In this document: piece by piece, positions 1,927-46,100 of the stretch
Numbering within the stretch: the first letter of the stretch is position 1
Layout: each line of letters starts with the position of its first letter
DNA from: a virus
Lineage: Duplodnaviria > Heunggongvirae > Uroviricota > Caudoviricetes
Reading direction: 5' to 3' (one strand)
DNA length: 53,623 bases
IMG/VR virus record: IMGVR_UViG_2718217807_000001
Translations under genes and position numbers: made by a program
The notes under the pieces: model-generated
Told to the model about the DNA's origin: nothing
The model's database searches: none
What the model saw: only the letters and a program-made list of their open reading frames with translations

Positions 1927-2108
1927 AAAGATTTTAAAAAGAGCTTTAAATACTATCCAGAGCAAGGCTATCTAAGAGATTCAGGCACTTACGTGCCTTA
2001 ATCTCCATTTGTCTCTGGGATTCGTTGTAAGAAACAACCTAACATCCCAGCTTTGCAGCCTGCTGCATGGCTTTATCATAGTGTTAAGAAAACAATAAGG
2101 ACTAAAAA

Positions 2109-2333
2109 ATGACTTATGAAACAAACATCGTCGCCTTGGCTGAAAACGACTTCTTGGCCAACACCCGGAAGTTGATGGAGAACCGGGACCAGGCGTTCAC
2201 GCTTTACCAATGGGTTGTCGACAGCCTTCGCGAAGGTAAGCACTCTGAGGAAATCGGTATGCTGGTTGGGGACCTGATCAACACGAACTTCGCGCTGGAT
2301 GTCCAGTTAAAGGGGCGTCCTGACTCAAAATAG
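2109..2333 (+). CDS. Hypothetical protein, 74 aa
   Basis: ORF with AAGGA ribosome-binding site and phage-like codon usage. Confidence 0.7.
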   Translation: MTYETNIVALAENDFLANTRKLMENRDQAFTLYQWVVDSLREGKHSEEIGMLVGDLINTNFALDVQLKGRPDSK

Positions 2334-2343
2334 TAAGTAACAA

Positions 2344-2372
2344 TTTACTTATATGCTTGTCGTATGTATGAT
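2344..2372 (+). promoter_or_regulatory. Sigma70-like promoter overlapping a TAAGTAA-N4-TTACTTA palindrome
   Basis: TTTACT (2344-2349), 17-bp spacer, TATGAT (2367-2372). Palindrome at 2334-2351. Confidence 0.55.
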
Positions 2373-2377
2373 TGCGC

Positions 2378-2810
2378 GGCCACTTTCATGTGGCCAAATT
2401 TTTAGCAGCCAAGCTATCACAAAATGGCAACGACACCAGTCTCTCGGTGAGAAACGGTCGGGATTGGTGGAGCAGTAAAGAACCTTGAGTCGAGGCTCAT
2501 GGGAAGACCCAGACGGGATTTGTAGCATAGGGTCTGTATTGCCGGTGTGAACGTGGGTTGGTAGCCCACGTTGGTTGAGGGCAAAAGCTACAGGGCTGTG
2601 TGGTGGGGGGAGCGACTTAGATACCTACCGCGCAGAATAAAAGCTCAACCGTTAAATTCTAAGAGGAACCTGTACGAGTAAGCCCTTTCCAGAAGAATGA
2701 GAGTGCTTACCAGTGGGAGGGACTGCTGATACTACGCCTAACTTTTTCGATTGAGAAAACACTGATTCGGCCGAACCGTTAAACAAAATGGGCCGAAGTT
2801 TTTTTAACGG
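2378..2810 (+). ncRNA. Putative large structured non-coding RNA of unknown family
   Basis: ~430 nt with no ORF of 60 codons or more, a promoter upstream and a hairpin+T tract at the 3' end. Many stems: GGCCAC/GTGGCC, AACGTGGG/CCCACGTT, GGTTGAG/CTCAACC, TGTAGC/GCTACA, GTAAGC/GCTTAC, TTCGGCC/GGCCGAA. Confidence 0.5.
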
Positions 2811-2903
2811 AATTGTTAGGATAAGTATGGTCAGCAGCCCCTACCGAGAAACAAAAACATTCAGCGAAACAGCGAAACAGCGAAGCGAAAACGGAAAGGC
2901 AAA

Positions 2904-3467
2904 ATGGCGAAGGCACCAGCAAAACAGGAAGGCATCAAATACAACCGTAATAGTCGTGTTTCCGATGAAAACGGGGCCGCAAAATTTGACCCGTGGCTGA
3001 AAGAGGTTCTTTTGTATACAAATGGCTTCTGTATGAGAAACGGGGCCGGTGGTGCTGCGGCCATTGTTCGTTTTGGCAACCACAACAAAACTGTTCAGGA
3101 AGGTTTCAGATCCTCAACCAGCGACCGCATGGAAATACTTGCCGTTATCAGAGGGTTGGATCTTCTTAATCAGAAATGCAATGTGACGATCTACACCAGC
3201 AACCAGCAGCTAATCAACGGCATGAAGTTGTGGGTTAAAGGCTGGAAAAAGCGCGGCTGGAAGATGGCGAACGGTGAGCGTGTGAAGGATGCCGATCTCT
3301 GGCAGGAACTGGATGCTGCCGCATCTGGACACCGCATTCGTTGGAGCCGCGTCAAAAGCACCAGACATGACGTGAATAACGAGCTGTGCGACATGATGGC
3401 TAAATCCATGGCCGAATCCCCAACGATGGTCGATCGCATGTATGAGGCTATTTATTACCGCGAATAA
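2904..3467 (+). CDS. RNase HI-like protein with substituted catalytic residues
   Basis: Colinear with E. coli RnhA (RMEI, WKKRGWK, VKDADLWQELD, NELCDMMA). TDG is TNG and TDS is TSN. Confidence 0.85.
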   Translation: MAKAPAKQEGIKYNRNSRVSDENGAAKFDPWLKEVLLYTNGFCMRNGAGGAAAIVRFGNHNKTVQEGFRSSTSDRMEILAVIRGLDLLNQKCNVTIYTSNQQLINGMKLWVKGWKKRGWKMANGERVKDADLWQELDAAASGHRIRWSRVKSTRHDVNNELCDMMAKSMAESPTMVDRMYEAIYYRE

Positions 3468-3512
3468 TAAATAAGTGTTTACTTATCTTTTGCGTTATTG
3501 TATGTTTCTTTT

Positions 3513-3592
3513 GCACGGAAGATAGCGCGGTTAGCGCTGGCCTCATGGACGAGGCGCAAATAGGCGGCTGGGTTCTCCCCAGCCGCAACCGT
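3513..3592 (+). ncRNA. Putative cloverleaf small RNA or structured leader
   Basis: Three consecutive hairpins AGCGC/GCGCT, GCCTC/GAGGC and GCGGCTGGG/CCCAGCCGC closed by ACGG/CCGT. Lies downstream of TTTACT-17-TATGTT and the palindrome at 3471-3486. Confidence 0.4.
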
Positions 3593-3616
3593 TTCTAAAT
3601 CATGCAAAGAGGCTTT

Positions 3617-4063
3617 ATGTTCAGTCTCCTATTCCCAAGCAAGCGTTTCGAACAGCAGATTAGGCTGATTGCCAGAGGCCTGGATGCCCAAAATCTGCGT
3701 ATCGAGATGCTTGAGCGCGTCGTTAGCAATCAAGCAGCTACGATCTCTCAGCTGACTGCAGGCCTAGAGAGCGCGCAATCTATCAAGGACCCTATTCGTG
3801 GAAAAGTACCAGAGAAAGCGGCTTCAGCCTCTCGCCCTGGCGATTTGCGTTCTGGTGTTAGCTCCTTTCGTTCTGGTTCCAGTAAGTCAGGCTCTGAGTC
3901 CCGCACCCAGCACTACAGTTCGCCCATCAACACCATTGCAGACGATCCGGCCCCGTCATATCACCACAGCCACGGACATCACCACCACTACTCCGGCGGC
4001 GACACTGGAGGGTATGACTCTGGATGCTCCGATTTGTCGTCCAGCTTCTCCGGTTGTGACTGA
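3617..4063 (+). CDS. Hypothetical protein: coiled coil with Ser/His/Gly-rich tail
   Basis: ORF 3602-4063; ATG 3617 follows AGAGG. Ends in a low-complexity tail HHSHGHHHHYSGGDTGGYDSGC. Confidence 0.7.
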   Translation: MFSLLFPSKRFEQQIRLIARGLDAQNLRIEMLERVVSNQAATISQLTAGLESAQSIKDPIRGKVPEKAASASRPGDLRSGVSSFRSGSSKSGSESRTQHYSSPINTIADDPAPSYHHSHGHHHHYSGGDTGGYDSGCSDLSSSFSGCD

Positions 4064-4120
4064 CACAGCCTGAAGTAGAAAACAAATTATTTTCTAAAAT
4101 AAGAAAACAAAGGAAATCAC

Positions 4121-4546
4121 ATGTTCGGTATTTTTAAAAAGAAAGTTCGTAAAGCCGCTGTTGAAGTCAAAAAGATGGAAAACCGCGATGCAGTAGAAGC
4201 CACCGTGTGGGGCGCCTATGCGATCGCATATGCCGACGGCACCTGCGATGCTAAAGAAATTAGCGTTCTGGAGAAGACCATCTCCGCACTGCCCTCTTTC
4301 TCTCCGTTTGCCGGCGAAATCGCCCAAATGAGTTCAAATATTCGTTCACGCTACGAAGCTTCCCCGCGCTCCGCTAACGCTGAAGCTATGCGTCAGCTGG
4401 CCGATGTAGCTGGAACCACTGATGCGGTCGACGTTCTGTGCCTGTGCCTGGACATCGCTGATAACGACGGCATCGATGAGAAAGAAGAACTGATGCTGAA
4501 GAAAATTGCCCAGGCACTGCAACTGTCTCTGGATCAGTACCTGTGA
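4121..4546 (+). CDS. TerB-like family protein
   Basis: AYAIAYADGTCDAKEISVL and CLDIADNDGIDEKEELMLKKIAQAL match the two TerB-fold helical hairpins. Strong RBS AAGGA. Confidence 0.8.
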   Translation: MFGIFKKKVRKAAVEVKKMENRDAVEATVWGAYAIAYADGTCDAKEISVLEKTISALPSFSPFAGEIAQMSSNIRSRYEASPRSANAEAMRQLADVAGTTDAVDVLCLCLDIADNDGIDEKEELMLKKIAQALQLSLDQYL

Positions 4547-4701
4547 TGGTCCGCGTCAGCGTCGCGCTGGCGCTGCTGGTTCTGTCTGTGCTGGTGGACT
4601 TCACCAGCCGGATTTTATCAGTGGCTGCGGATGGGGTGCTGGTTATTACTGGCATCACTTTATTACTGCCTTTGCTGATTAAAGGCGCCAAAACAATATA
4701 A
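4546..4701 (+). CDS. Small membrane protein, DUF3927-like (51 aa, not in ORF track)
   Basis: Hand translation MVRVSVALALLVLSVLVDFTSRILSVAADGVLVITGITLLLPLLIKGAKTI. TGATG overlap with the terB-like gene. VDFTSR..S..ADG motif. Confidence 0.7.
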   Translation: MVRVSVALALLVLSVLVDFTSRILSVAADGVLVITGITLLLPLLIKGAKTI

Positions 4702-43103: not shown

Positions 43104-46100
43104 ATGGAAGCTTCAGTTTTTAAAAAATCCCGTCTTTCTCAACTCGTCGCTCATGGTCTGATTATCTCAGGCCGTGGTGGCAGTAAAGGAGGCGGTAGCG
43201 CAAGAACGCCAGTAGAGGCCAATGACACGGTAAATAGCCGTGCTATGGCTTCTGTACTGGATTTATTGGGGGAGGGTGTTGTCGGTGGTCTGGTTGATGG
43301 TGCGAAATCCATTTTCCTGAACGACACGCCGCTTCAGAACGCTGACGGTTCCTATAACTTCAGCGGTGTGACCTGGTGGTTCCGGGACGGCTCTCAGGAT
43401 CAGACTGTTATCGATGGCTTCGACTTCATCGAGACGCCAAAGTCGGTTGGGATGCAGCTGAAGCAAACGAGCCAGGTTAACGTTTCTCTGGACTCCGCTG
43501 ACAGCGATCGTGTTCGCGTTGTTATGAAATTCCCGTCACTTCGCAAAATCGACAAGAAAAACGGAGATACAAACGGCACAACCGTTCAGTACAAATTCCA
43601 GATTGATTCGGGAAATGGAAAAGGTTTTGTTGATGCGATAGCCGAAGGCGAAGACGCGTCGATCATTACTTTGACCGCCAAAAAGACAGGCGTTTATTAC
43701 CGCAGCTATGTGTTTGATTTGCCGAAGCCGGCCAAATCCTACACGTTGCGTGCAATTCGTCTGACCGAAGACCATAAAGACGACAGCTATTTGTACGACG
43801 ACACCTACATCGATTCTATTGGTGAAATCGTCAACACCAGCCTGAACTATCCGAACTCTGTTCTGGCTGGCCTGAAAATCAACTCAGAGCAATTCGGCTC
43901 GTCTATGCCGACTCGTTCATACCTGATTAAAGGTATGAAGATCCGCGTACCGTCAAACTACAACGCTGACACCAATACCTACGACGGCAATTGGGATGGC
44001 ACGTTTAAGCTGGCATCAACTTCTAACCCGGCATGGATCCTTTTTGACCTGTTAACGAATACCCGTTATGGCTTAGGCGAGTTCGTTAAAGAGTCAATGA
44101 TAATCATTGGCGAGTTGTATCAGATCGGCCGCTACTGTGATGCGTTCGTTGATGATGGCTTCGGTAGCCAAGAGAAGCGTTTCGCTATCAACACCCAGAT
44201 TACCAGTCGCCAAGATGCTTATCGCGTCGTGCAGGACATCGCAGGGGCATTCCGTGGCATGGTTTATTGGGCTGGTGGCATGGTTCACGTCACGCAGGAT
44301 TCCCCAGCTGACCCGGTGATGCTGTTCTCTAACAGCAACGTGGTTAACGGCTCTTTCGTCTACAAAGGCTCGGCCCGAAAAGACCGCTATTCCGTTGCAC
44401 TCATCACCTACAACAACAAGGAAGATGGCTACAAGCAAAGTGTAGAGTACGTTGAAGACCAGGAGGCAATTAAGCGATACGGCATCCGTAAAACCGAATC
44501 CGTCGCCTTTGGTTGTACTTCACGGGGCCAGGCTCACCGTGTTGGTCTCTGGACGCTTTACACGTCCCGCATGGAGTCCGATGTTATCACTTACTCTGTA
44601 GGCATGGATTCAGTATTCCTGATGCCTGGTGATGTGGTTCTTATCGCTGATAAATTCCGTGCTGGAAGACGCAACAGCGGCCGAATCACTGGATATACTG
44701 CTAACAGCGTTAAGCTGGATTCGCCTGTAGATTTGACGTCCGTCGGAAATCACATCACCTTCCTGAGTTCAGAGGGTAAGATGGTTGAGCGTGACATTCT
44801 GGAAAATGGTAAGAATGTTTCCACTGTGACGTTTAAAACCGCCCTCACATCGGCAGAAACGCCCGTTGCTGATGCTGTATGGGTAATCGCACAACCTGAT
44901 CTGGTTCCGCTTCAGGCACGCGTCGTGAGCGTTGCTGAAGGCACGGACGGGACGTCGTTTAACATTACGGCCATCCAGAACAATCCGACCAAATACGAAG
45001 CCATCGACAACGGCGCACAGCTGATCCCGCAAAATACAACTGTCCTCGATCCGACTTTCTCAAAGCCGTCCGGTCTGACAGTGACAGAAGGTACTTACCT
45101 GTCTTCTCCGGGCAACTTGTCCGTATCGTTAACTGCCGCGTGGCAGGGGAAATCAGCACAGTATTATGTCAGCTGGCGCCGCTCTGACGCTGGTAACGTT
45201 TCTAACTGGCAATCCCAGCGCGTCACTGAAGAGCAATTCGAACTCCGTGGTGTCGCTGAAGACGGGCAGTACGATTTTCAGGTGTACGCTGTTTCCGTTG
45301 GGGGCAGGAAGACTGATCCTATCAGCATCACCTACAAAGTGCTTGGCACACTGTCAGCTCCAGCTGCACCTACTGGCTTGACCGCTGTAGGCGACTACCG
45401 TTCAATCGTTTTGAATTGGATCAACCCGTCTTCTGTGGACTTAGACCACATTGAGGTGCTGGCGTCCAAGATTAACGATAAGGCAAAAGCTCAGGTCATC
45501 GCAAAAGTTAGCGGGACGACGTTTAGCCATAACGGTCTTGAAGATTCTGCCACCTGGTATTATTGGGTACGCGCAGCCAACAAACGCGGGATGCTCAGCG
45601 CTCTAAACTCGTCTCTTGCAACAACCGCAACGACGCGTGATGTACTTTCGTTCCTGAAGAACAAAATCACGGAGTCAGAGCTGGGCAAGGATCTGATTGC
45701 TGACATAGACAGCAAGGCTGTTGCCGTTGAGGTTGACGCCGCAATCGACGAAGCCAAAAGCCAGGCAACTTCCCAGGTTAATGACGCTCGTACTGAGTCC
45801 GCCAATGCGGTCAGTGATGCGAAAAAAACGCTGAACTCCGCGATCAACAAAGAGATAACGGATCGAGCAAGTGCAGTGGCGGACGAGGCCAGTAAACGTG
45901 CTCAGGCTGTTTCTAATGAGACGTCTGCAAGGATTAAGGCTGTTTCAGACGAAGCAACCGCCCGCGCTGCTGCAATCTCTGGTGAGGCTGACGCTCGTAA
46001 CAAAGCAATTTCAGACGAGGCCTCAGCGCGAGCTAAAGCGGTGTCTGATGAGGCCATTGCCCGCGCCTCTGCCATTTCTGACTCTGTAGCAGTTGAGGCT

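Follow-up and report, generated by a model that had tools for sequence, protein, structure and literature searches.

The DNA analysed here, called the window in what follows, is a stretch of 53,623 nucleotides that encodes on its plus strand, at 2904..3467 with the stop codon included, a homologue of RNase HI of 187 amino acids. This assignment is based on a match to the Pfam profile PF00075, on a match to Escherichia coli RNase HI and on the fold. The region matches, at 100% identity, pCAV1099-111, a circular and non-mobilizable plasmid (111,395 bp) of Klebsiella oxytoca CAV1099, and the window also contains a complete structural module of the siphovirus type. Relatives measuring 107-113 kb have been assigned to viral genomes, and one of these has terminal repeats. 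The plasmid identity, the structural module and the viral classification of the relatives together identify the element as an SSU5-like phage-plasmid. It is filed among plasmids, and a megablast search with positions 2000-4600 against a phage collection returned no match.

The gene is part of a module that comprises, in this order, thymidylate synthase, DHFR, an AAA ATPase, a 3'-5' exonuclease, Dam, a gene of 74 amino acids, a gap of ~570 nt free of open reading frames (ORFs), RNase H, a variable ORF, a terB/tciA-like gene, DUF3927 and Rha. The module has the identical order in Escherichia phage Cyrano. Each element examined, including a complete genome of 112.6 kb, carries a single copy of RNase H. 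The ORF downstream of RNase H differs among relatives, and in some of them the whole cassette has been swapped. Pfam and PHROG searches revealed no informative function for the neighbouring ORFs or for the replacement ones, and a tRNA search found none.

The upstream RNA and the protein product

Ahead of the gene, a promoter-like site (2344-2372) is followed by a conserved structured RNA of ~470 nt, predicted by RNAalifold on the plus strand at 2378..2850 and co-oriented with the gene. RNAalifold proposed 147 base pairs in this region, 22 of them with compensatory double changes, and a predicted long-range helix encloses a terminator-like hairpin and a U-run. The RNA had no match in Rfam, either at gathering score across the whole window or at E values up to 10 for positions 2250-2950, and an nhmmer profile found no counterpart of it in the equivalent gap of phage Cyrano. 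Between the RNA and the coding sequence lies an A-rich leader (2851..2903, plus strand), at which the variable cassette starts; it contains repeats of 8 nt as well as the ribosome-binding site GGAAAGG. Co-transcription of the RNA and the RNase H gene is plausible, since no promoter-like site was detected between 2810 and 2904.

The first-pass annotation had suggested that the protein might be the partner of this RNA, a proposal that the comparison of relatives does not favour. The RNA is equally conserved ahead of active, inactive and absent RNase H genes, and relative to the K. pneumoniae elements its region is 87% identical, versus 75% for the RNase H coding sequence. Of 30 plasmids matching the region, four have the upstream RNA only, with the RNase H gene replaced, and homology to one relative that lacks the gene (L028) stops at ~2850. 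Because the RNA persists without the RNase H gene, it is not an obligate partner of that gene; it appears to belong to the backbone of the element, and the RNase H gene to a replaceable cassette.

The window protein is readily recognized as a member of the RNase HI family. Residues 33-170 match PF00075 with an E value of 4.3e-27 and a score of 95.5 bits (cut-off 25.8; active orthologues score 156 bits), and its PHROG matches are exclusively 'Rnase H', in the form of PHROG 531, and 'ribonuclease'. About 40 chains of E. coli RNase HI in the PDB match residues 32-181 (~1e-37; best 2e-39, wild type 5e-37), and identity to the E. coli enzyme is ~41%. An AlphaFold model built from 15 homologues has a core with pLDDT of 85-92 by block. 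Foldseek superposes this model on E. coli RNase HI with a target-normalised TM-score of 0.85-0.90 and an rmsd of 1.3-2.0 Å over 143-146 alignment columns, and the best 50 matches are bacterial RNase HI chains (48 from E. coli and 2 psychrotrophic), together with one ancestral reconstruction.

The first 31 residues (2904..2996, plus strand) form a basic N-terminal extension that, according to the alignments, is not present in cellular RNase HI. Its GIKYNR motif is conserved in both active and inactive forms, and residues 1-24 are predicted to be disordered (pLDDT <50). The whole protein has a pI of 9.6. Eukaryote-type RNase H1 differs in having an N-terminal hybrid-binding domain (PF01693), for which no match was found in the window protein at E values up to 1. 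An ATG at 2827 is in frame in some relatives and leads to calls of 213 amino acids. It was rejected as the true start: the codon is ACG in two related loci (L008 and L009), in a third (L003) a stop follows after nine codons, and the site falls within a conserved helix of the RNA.

Lost and retained residues of the active site

Catalytic positions were mapped through the PDB chain alignments and through E. coli rnhA taken from NC_000913. The window protein carries N40 (AAT, 3021..3023, motif YTNGFC) in place of the catalytic Asp10, and S99-N-Q-Q (3198..3209) in place of D70-S71-Q72-Y73, S99 being encoded by AGC at 3198-3200 within the motif YTSNQQ. The loop K-G-H-A-G-H reads K-S-T-R-H-D (3354..3371, motif VKSTRHD), with T153 (ACC, 3360-3362) at the position of His124; close relatives sharing the substitutions at Asp10 and Asp70, hereafter the dead clade, in some cases have isoleucine here. 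Substrate-contact residues are also changed, S73 and D74 (3120..3125) standing where active orthologues keep Asn44 and Asn45, and D129 (GAT, 3288..3290) at the position of Asn100. Conversely, E77 (GAA, 3132..3134) and D163 (GAC, 3390..3392) correspond to Glu48 and Asp134, so that the DEDD tetrad reads N, E, S, D, with two of four residues kept. The basic protrusion W110-K120 (W81-K91 in E. coli; WVKGWKKRGWK, 3231..3263) is likewise retained, and is invariant across the aligned homologues. The E. coli alignments thus bear out the first-pass annotation, which had reported the absence of Asp10 and Asp70 together with the retention of Glu48, Asp134 and the protrusion, and its codon coordinates and motifs (YTNGFC, YTSNQQ, VKSTRHD) are all exact; it overlooked the additional changes fixed in the dead clade, namely N44S, N45D, S71N, Y73Q, N100D, W120R, G123S and a two-residue deletion behind N16.

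The dead clade was compared, in E. coli numbering, with 130 active RNase HI representatives drawn from a library of 1.8 billion proteins. D10, D70, S71 and H124 each occur in 100% of the active representatives and are replaced in the dead clade by N, S, N, and T or I, respectively. N100 (98%) is changed to D, Y73 (97%) to Q, N45 (96%) to D, N44 (95%) to S, G123 (93%) to S or T, and W120 (88%) to R, and P17 (91%) is lost through a two-residue deletion after N16. Residues kept in the dead clade are G11, C13, N16, G18, G20, G21, T43, R46, M47 and E48, as well as W81, W85, K87, R88, W90, K91, K99, D102, L103, W104, N130 and D134. The NCBIfam equivalog NF001236, with a cut-off of 160 bits, separates the same proteins: the window protein (P0001, 144.7) and a more distant inactive relative (P0035, 129.9) are below it, and two relatives with an intact DEDD tetrad, P0004 (204.7) and P0003 (168.4), above it. 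PGAP labels the gene 'RNase H family protein' and not ribonuclease HI.

In RNase HI, the two metals share Asp10 as a ligand, and the attacking water is held by Asp70 and also acted on by His124; site-directed changes of D10 and of D70 abolish activity, according to work cited in the same source (PMC8900815). The loss of hydrolysis can be safely inferred, because it is these three residues, with their roles at the metals and the water, that are missing, and on the basis of established enzymology the window protein would not be expected to cleave RNA:DNA hybrids by the two-metal mechanism. It can still be imagined that the protein is an RNase H whose metals are held by alternative acidic residues, namely E77, D163 or the new D74, D129 or D156. 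Such a site would need acidic residues, and the window clade strictly retains E48 and D134 and has gained aspartates near the groove. We nevertheless regard this as very improbable, since D10 bridges both metals and since D10 and D70 are part of the D-E-D-H-D pattern found in 129 of 223 domains matched by the window protein (the others being mostly degenerate second copies within multi-domain proteins) and in 114 of 119 domains in a search of the Cyrano group. Furthermore, the sister form P0035 lacks E48 and D134 too. The earlier designation of the protein as a probable pseudo-nuclease therefore holds, given the loss of two metal ligands and the catalytic histidine and a score below the NF001236 cut-off.

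Loss of catalysis does not by itself describe what happened to the substrate groove. By homology to the complex of human RNase H1 with a hybrid (Nowotny et al., 2005, 2007), we take N44 and N45 to contact the 2'-OH groups of the RNA, and T43 and N100 (homologous to human N240) to form the DNA phosphate-binding pocket; offsets to the human residues were checked at the catalytic residues. The first-pass annotation had drawn a parallel with D10N mutants, which still bind hybrids. This parallel stands in part, as the basic protrusion and T43 are kept, and fails in part, as N44, N45, S71, Y73 and N100 are all replaced. Because of these replacements the window protein is not simply a natural D10N mutant, and with five contacts changed, two of them to aspartate, its recognition of canonical hybrids appears doubtful.

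Distribution, origin and selection of the presumably inactive form

A tblastn search of PLSDB identified 633 plasmids with an RNase HI homologue bearing the N-terminal extension, 621 of them non-mobilizable; those among the matches listed are mostly ~105-125 kb in size. Identity to the window protein is at least 95% in five of the 633 plasmids (from K. oxytoca and K. michiganensis), ~73% in 21 (from K. pneumoniae, annotated rnhA) and below 60% in the remaining 607. The dead clade is therefore small, making up 5/633 of the PLSDB plasmids that carry such a homologue. The exact window protein occurs on 68 contigs and is 100% identical in three complete plasmids. Its 90% cluster has 30 members, for which 13 distinct variants are listed, each with N10 and S70. 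The listed variants, which include K. grimontii and K. michiganensis isolates, are 187 or 213 amino acids long, except for one call of 144 amino acids truncated at the N-terminus. The N/S/T state at positions 10, 70 and 124 is common to the window, an IMG/VR record (G001, 99% identity) and the loci L006 (91%) and L010. As the substitutions are shared by 68 contigs, three complete plasmids and 13 variants, they are not a sequencing slip.

Related proteins at the same locus have an intact site. The orthologues P0004, P0005 and P0006, which are 64-73% identical over the full alignment and 67-74% by local BLASTP, retain it, the active residues are kept at the sites checked in IMG/VR and metagenome loci L012-L015 and L021-L026, and the RNase HI of phage Cyrano (36% identity) keeps D-E-D-H-D. 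Since the syntenic orthologues (67-75% identity) and phage Cyrano keep the full DEDD site with its histidine, the dead form is derived. The two forms are split by host, the dead form occurring in the K. oxytoca complex and the active form in K. pneumoniae.

Two relatives bear on how the site was lost. P0003, known from a single contig of 1.5 kb, keeps DEDD as well as S71, Y73 and N100, and has N44S, N45S and a loop without histidine. In the best tree it is placed with the dead clade (71/98), and it looks like an intermediate in which only the His loop and N44/N45 have been lost. P0035, from a K. oxytoca element of 113 kb, occupies the same locus and is 54% identical to the window protein with zero gaps; here the substitutions are D10A, E48D, D70T, H124T and D134L. 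A tree joining P0035 with the window clade is not rejected (p-AU 0.41). Judged from sequence, either one or two inactivation events could account for P0035 and the window clade, and a single event is favoured because they share the two-residue loop deletion and N100D. An E. coli singleton, P0280, in which the catalytic positions read A, K, D, R and D, was a candidate for a third independent dead lineage and was set aside: its changes resemble local frame-scrambled patches, and it is present in one assembly.

Purifying selection on the inactive form was estimated by comparing the window with L006, both of them dead. They differ by 50.5 synonymous and 17.5 non-synonymous changes (dS 0.635, dN 0.041), which gives a dN/dS of 0.064, an estimate that leans mainly on this one deep lineage pair. 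Under neutrality 79% of the changes would be non-synonymous, and 18 of 68 were observed (binomial p 2.6e-20). The corresponding dN/dS values of flanking genes are 0.041 for the 74-amino-acid gene, 0.032 for the terB-like gene, 0.089 for Rha and 0.20 for DUF3927; these were measured against L010, a close relative of L006 within the dead clade, as the L006 contig has no neighbouring genes. Two active orthologues give 0.075. The dead RNase HI is thus under purifying selection about as strong as that acting on its neighbours.

Divergence between clades has a different profile. The dN of RNase H is 0.18 versus the active clade and 0.39 versus P0035, with 0.04-0.05 for Dam. The stem branch of the dead clade has a length of 0.21-0.23, versus 0.04-0.22 for the active end branches, and the branch of P0035 is very long (0.94-1.11). 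Between dead and active clades dS is saturated (>1 or not computable). The replacement motifs are conserved among the dead-clade variants. Taken together, the alignments point to a burst of change accompanying the loss of the active site and to tight constraint thereafter, and an accelerated stem with later slow evolution fits a change of function.

The conserved sequence might also be that of a recently disabled gene in which little time has passed since inactivation, and some relatives do lack a functional copy. L010, a metagenome contig present in two samples and lying within the dead clade at a dS of 0.2 from L006, has an 11-nt deletion that takes out the S-N-Q-Q codons exactly and shifts the frame, and its stop codon has become CAG. 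Its sub-lineage also includes intact copies (P0029, P0031 and P0033). In NZ_CP138770.1, an unrelated minus-strand gene is found in place of the cassette, and a PF00075 search of this entire plasmid gave no match. With L010 broken and four relatives without the gene, the dead RNase HI is dispensable. These cases and the long P0035 branch are what a decaying remnant would predict. This explanation is, however, largely refuted and is left with only a slight chance of being correct: the substitutions between window and L006 are far from the neutral proportion despite their considerable dS, no internal stop or frameshift occurs among the listed variants other than in L010, and the rebuilt motifs are conserved. 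The first-pass annotation had named, as a finding that would refute it, close homologues with intact D10 and D70 together with neutral decay of this copy. This check favours the pseudo-nuclease reading: such orthologues exist, but the window copy is not decaying.

Catalysis itself may have been redundant. A stand-alone 5'-3' exonuclease/flap endonuclease (PF02739) is encoded in all three plasmids checked, one with the dead form, one with the active form and one without RNase H, so primer removal is covered without RNase HI; no family A polymerase was found in dead, active or RNase-H-less elements. Redundancy of this type explains a possible loss of catalysis and not the retention of a dead protein.

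Possible roles of a presumably non-catalytic RNase HI

The explanation we consider best, at a probability of roughly 60%, is that the window gene encodes a non-catalytic derivative of RNase HI maintained by selection, which binds and does not cut, and which likely acts by occupying a nucleic acid. Its ancestor would have been the RNase HI normally carried in the replication and nucleotide-metabolism module of SSU5-like phage-plasmids. In the K. oxytoca-complex lineage, this protein would have acquired D10N and D70S and lost the catalytic His loop and several substrate contacts, while its fold, N-terminal extension, high pI and basic protrusion rich in tryptophan and lysine remained. A binding function is preferred to a cutting one because purifying selection persisted after the active site was lost. 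Loss of catalysis could be tolerated because of the flap endonuclease of the element and the host's own RNase HI. Most likely, the protein would use its basic protrusion and rebuilt groove to occupy some nucleic-acid structure; a less likely mode is that it docks onto a partner in the replisome. The retained protrusion indicates a nucleic-acid ligand, which, given the rebuilt groove, may differ from a canonical hybrid: candidates are R-loops, hybrids of the primer type and other duplexes. The data show the substitutions, fold, orthology, synteny, derived state, purifying selection and dispensability, and the loss of activity is deduced from established enzymology; what the ligand is and how the element benefits are matters of speculation.

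A more specific version of this explanation, which we hold only tentatively, is that the active site has been rebuilt as a new binding pocket, so that the protein would be a neofunctionalised factor of the phage-plasmid that occupies nucleic acids or R-loops. N-G-F-C, S-N-Q-Q, S-T-R-H-D, N45D and N100D might all be elements of such a pocket. In K. oxytoca-complex hosts, it might for example stabilise hybrids that prime replication, or block either host RNase HI or a defence that depends on hybrids.

[quoted passage not shown] Nucleic-acid binding would then no longer be needed, consistent with the loss of the substrate-contact asparagines, and catalysis would have passed to the flap endonuclease found in all three elements tested and to host RNase HI. 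Phage polymerases with RNase H subunits are known, and in those systems catalysis is required (PMC13648698). Set against this are the invariance of the basic protrusion, known for substrate binding, and the predicted disorder of the extension, and we consider a scaffold fairly unlikely.

Position and host range suggest yet another role. The gene lies at one edge of a variable cassette that is flanked by the conserved RNA and the terB/tciA-like gene, and the restriction of the dead form to the K. oxytoca complex, with the active form in K. pneumoniae, suggests a host-specific pressure. The protein could occupy hybrids or outcompete host RNase HI and so counter systems that need or sense RNase H or hybrids, such as retron msDNA maturation and reverse-transcriptase-based defences; alternatively, the loss of activity could be an escape from a defence triggered by phage nucleases. 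Retrons, which require RNase H, can be triggered by nucleases of phages (bioRxiv 10.1101/2023.03.15.532788). However, the PHROG matches of the window protein include no known anti-defence protein, and the changes at substrate contacts leave its occupancy of hybrids uncertain. The known anti-retron protein Rad appears unrelated: its description, as a primase/helicase-TOPRIM-like protein of 189 amino acids that works by degrading the ncRNA, sets the window protein apart from it. A role in counter-defence or competition is accordingly unlikely, more so than a scaffold.

Comparison with known systems helps to place the preferred explanation, that of a selected, binding-only RNase HI derivative. 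The closest counterparts are the rnhA genes of SSU5-like phage-plasmids of K. pneumoniae, E. coli, Salmonella and Enterobacter, and that of phage Cyrano, which lie in the same syntenic slot and encode proteins with the same N-terminal extension and basic protrusion, in one copy per element. Unlike the window protein, they keep D10, E48, D70, H124, D134, N44, N45 and N100 and pass NF001236. Stand-alone RNase HI homologues of Firmicutes (Bacillus subtilis YpdQ and YpeP, 'Group A' of Kochiwa et al., 2007) are without demonstrated activity (PMC1950709). Like the window protein, they are single-domain members of the RNase HI family, and they fail to take the place of active RNases H; in contrast to the window protein, they are chromosomal and lack the basic protrusion, whereas the window protein has kept the protrusion, is of E. 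coli-type origin and resides on a phage-plasmid. The connection domain of retroviral reverse transcriptase and tandem RNase H proteins also kept the fold after loss of DEDD. Many of the 150 best matches are two-domain proteins that pair an intact with a degenerate RNase H domain; such degenerate domains are fused to an active copy, whereas the window protein is the only RNase HI of its element. Inactive or unproven RNase HI in Firmicutes, and degenerate domains beside active ones, are thus already known, and a literature search found no inactive RNase HI described in phage-plasmids.

The other obvious reference point is the set of active-site mutants of E. coli RNase HI (D10A/N, D70N and H124A), which share the fold of the window protein and one of which, D10N, it carries naturally. 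In the laboratory mutants the substrate groove is intact, whereas in the window protein five contact positions and the loop length have changed, so that equivalence to the laboratory 'hybrid traps' cannot be assumed. Catalytically dead human RNASEH1 D210N is used as an R-loop probe.

Even if the function of the window protein turned out to be trivial, an annotation would be corrected, as some sources label these proteins ribonuclease HI. The system also comes with built-in controls, in the form of ~73% identical active orthologues at the same locus, P0003, P0035 and the natural knock-outs, so that what an RNase HI fold does without cutting can be addressed directly. Phage-plasmids of Klebsiella are clinically common, and little is known about how they replicate and interact with their hosts. 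To trap R-loops, laboratories widely use catalytically dead RNase H1, and a natural, stand-alone version under selection would mean that mobile elements take advantage of the same principle or have redirected the fold to a new ligand. Were the rebuilt pocket to prove true, the window protein would be the first 'dead RNase HI' from nature to which a dedicated biological role in a mobile element could be assigned.

Structured RNA and alternative start upstream of the RNase H gene

Upstream of the gene for the catalytically dead RNase HI homologue, the window carries a structured RNA that is conserved and roughly 470 nt long (window 2378-2850, plus strand), for which 147 base pairs are predicted, 22 of them with compensatory changes. 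The predicted fold comprises a terminator-like hairpin and a U-run, both enclosed by a long-range helix. This RNA is more conserved than the flanking coding sequence and persists in relatives devoid of the RNase H gene; a search of Rfam returned no match.

An upstream ATG at position 2827 is located within a predicted helix of the RNA, and its frame relative to the RNase H ORF is set by the length of an A-run together with 8-nt CAGCGAAA repeats (window 2827-2903). In the window the two are in different frames. Several relatives (P0002, P0030 and P0032, from at least 26 contigs) are called as 213 aa, with a Lys/Arg-rich extension of 26 residues. This ATG is not conserved in K. pneumoniae-type elements.

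Degenerate and disrupted RNase HI homologues

Another dead RNase HI, P0035, has degenerated further than the window protein and is encoded at the same locus in a 113-kb K. oxytoca element (L031:6001-6567). It carries A, D, T, T and L at the five catalytic positions (D10, E48, D70, H124 and D134), shares 54% identity with the window protein in a gap-free alignment and forms a very long branch. The dead gene also occurs as a natural broken copy in a metagenome contig (L010:952-1702), where the codons of the former D70 site are precisely what an 11-nt deletion has taken out and CAG replaces the stop codon; as a result, the copy is split into one ORF of 100 aa and another of 147 aa.

P0280, a singleton E. 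coli RNase HI of 202 aa from the Cyrano group, has A, K, D, R and D at the catalytic positions. Its changes fall in short scrambled patches, which suggests errors of assembly or frameshifts that compensate each other. The top-ranking RNase HI matches P0036-P0182 include many proteins of 290-580 aa in which the RNase H domain occurs two or three times, as a rule with an intact DEDHD set in one domain and degenerate sites in the rest.

Flap endonuclease and variable gene content

A stand-alone PF02739 5'-3' exonuclease/flap endonuclease, whose open frame spans about 334 aa, is present in all three phage-plasmids considered: at 82672-83169 in NZ_CP011594.1 (dead RNase HI), at 44223-44720 in G002 (active RNase HI) and at 3954-4454 in NZ_CP138770.1 (no RNase HI). 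Family A DNA polymerase is absent from all three.

The ORF 3' of the RNase H gene (window 3602-4063) differs among relatives, the equivalent slot holding an ORF of 153, 167, 123, 90 or 172 aa, or none, and in NZ_CP138770.1 a minus-strand PHROG-2320 gene stands in place of the whole cassette. The stretch from the RNA to the terB-like gene thus behaves like a variable hotspot.
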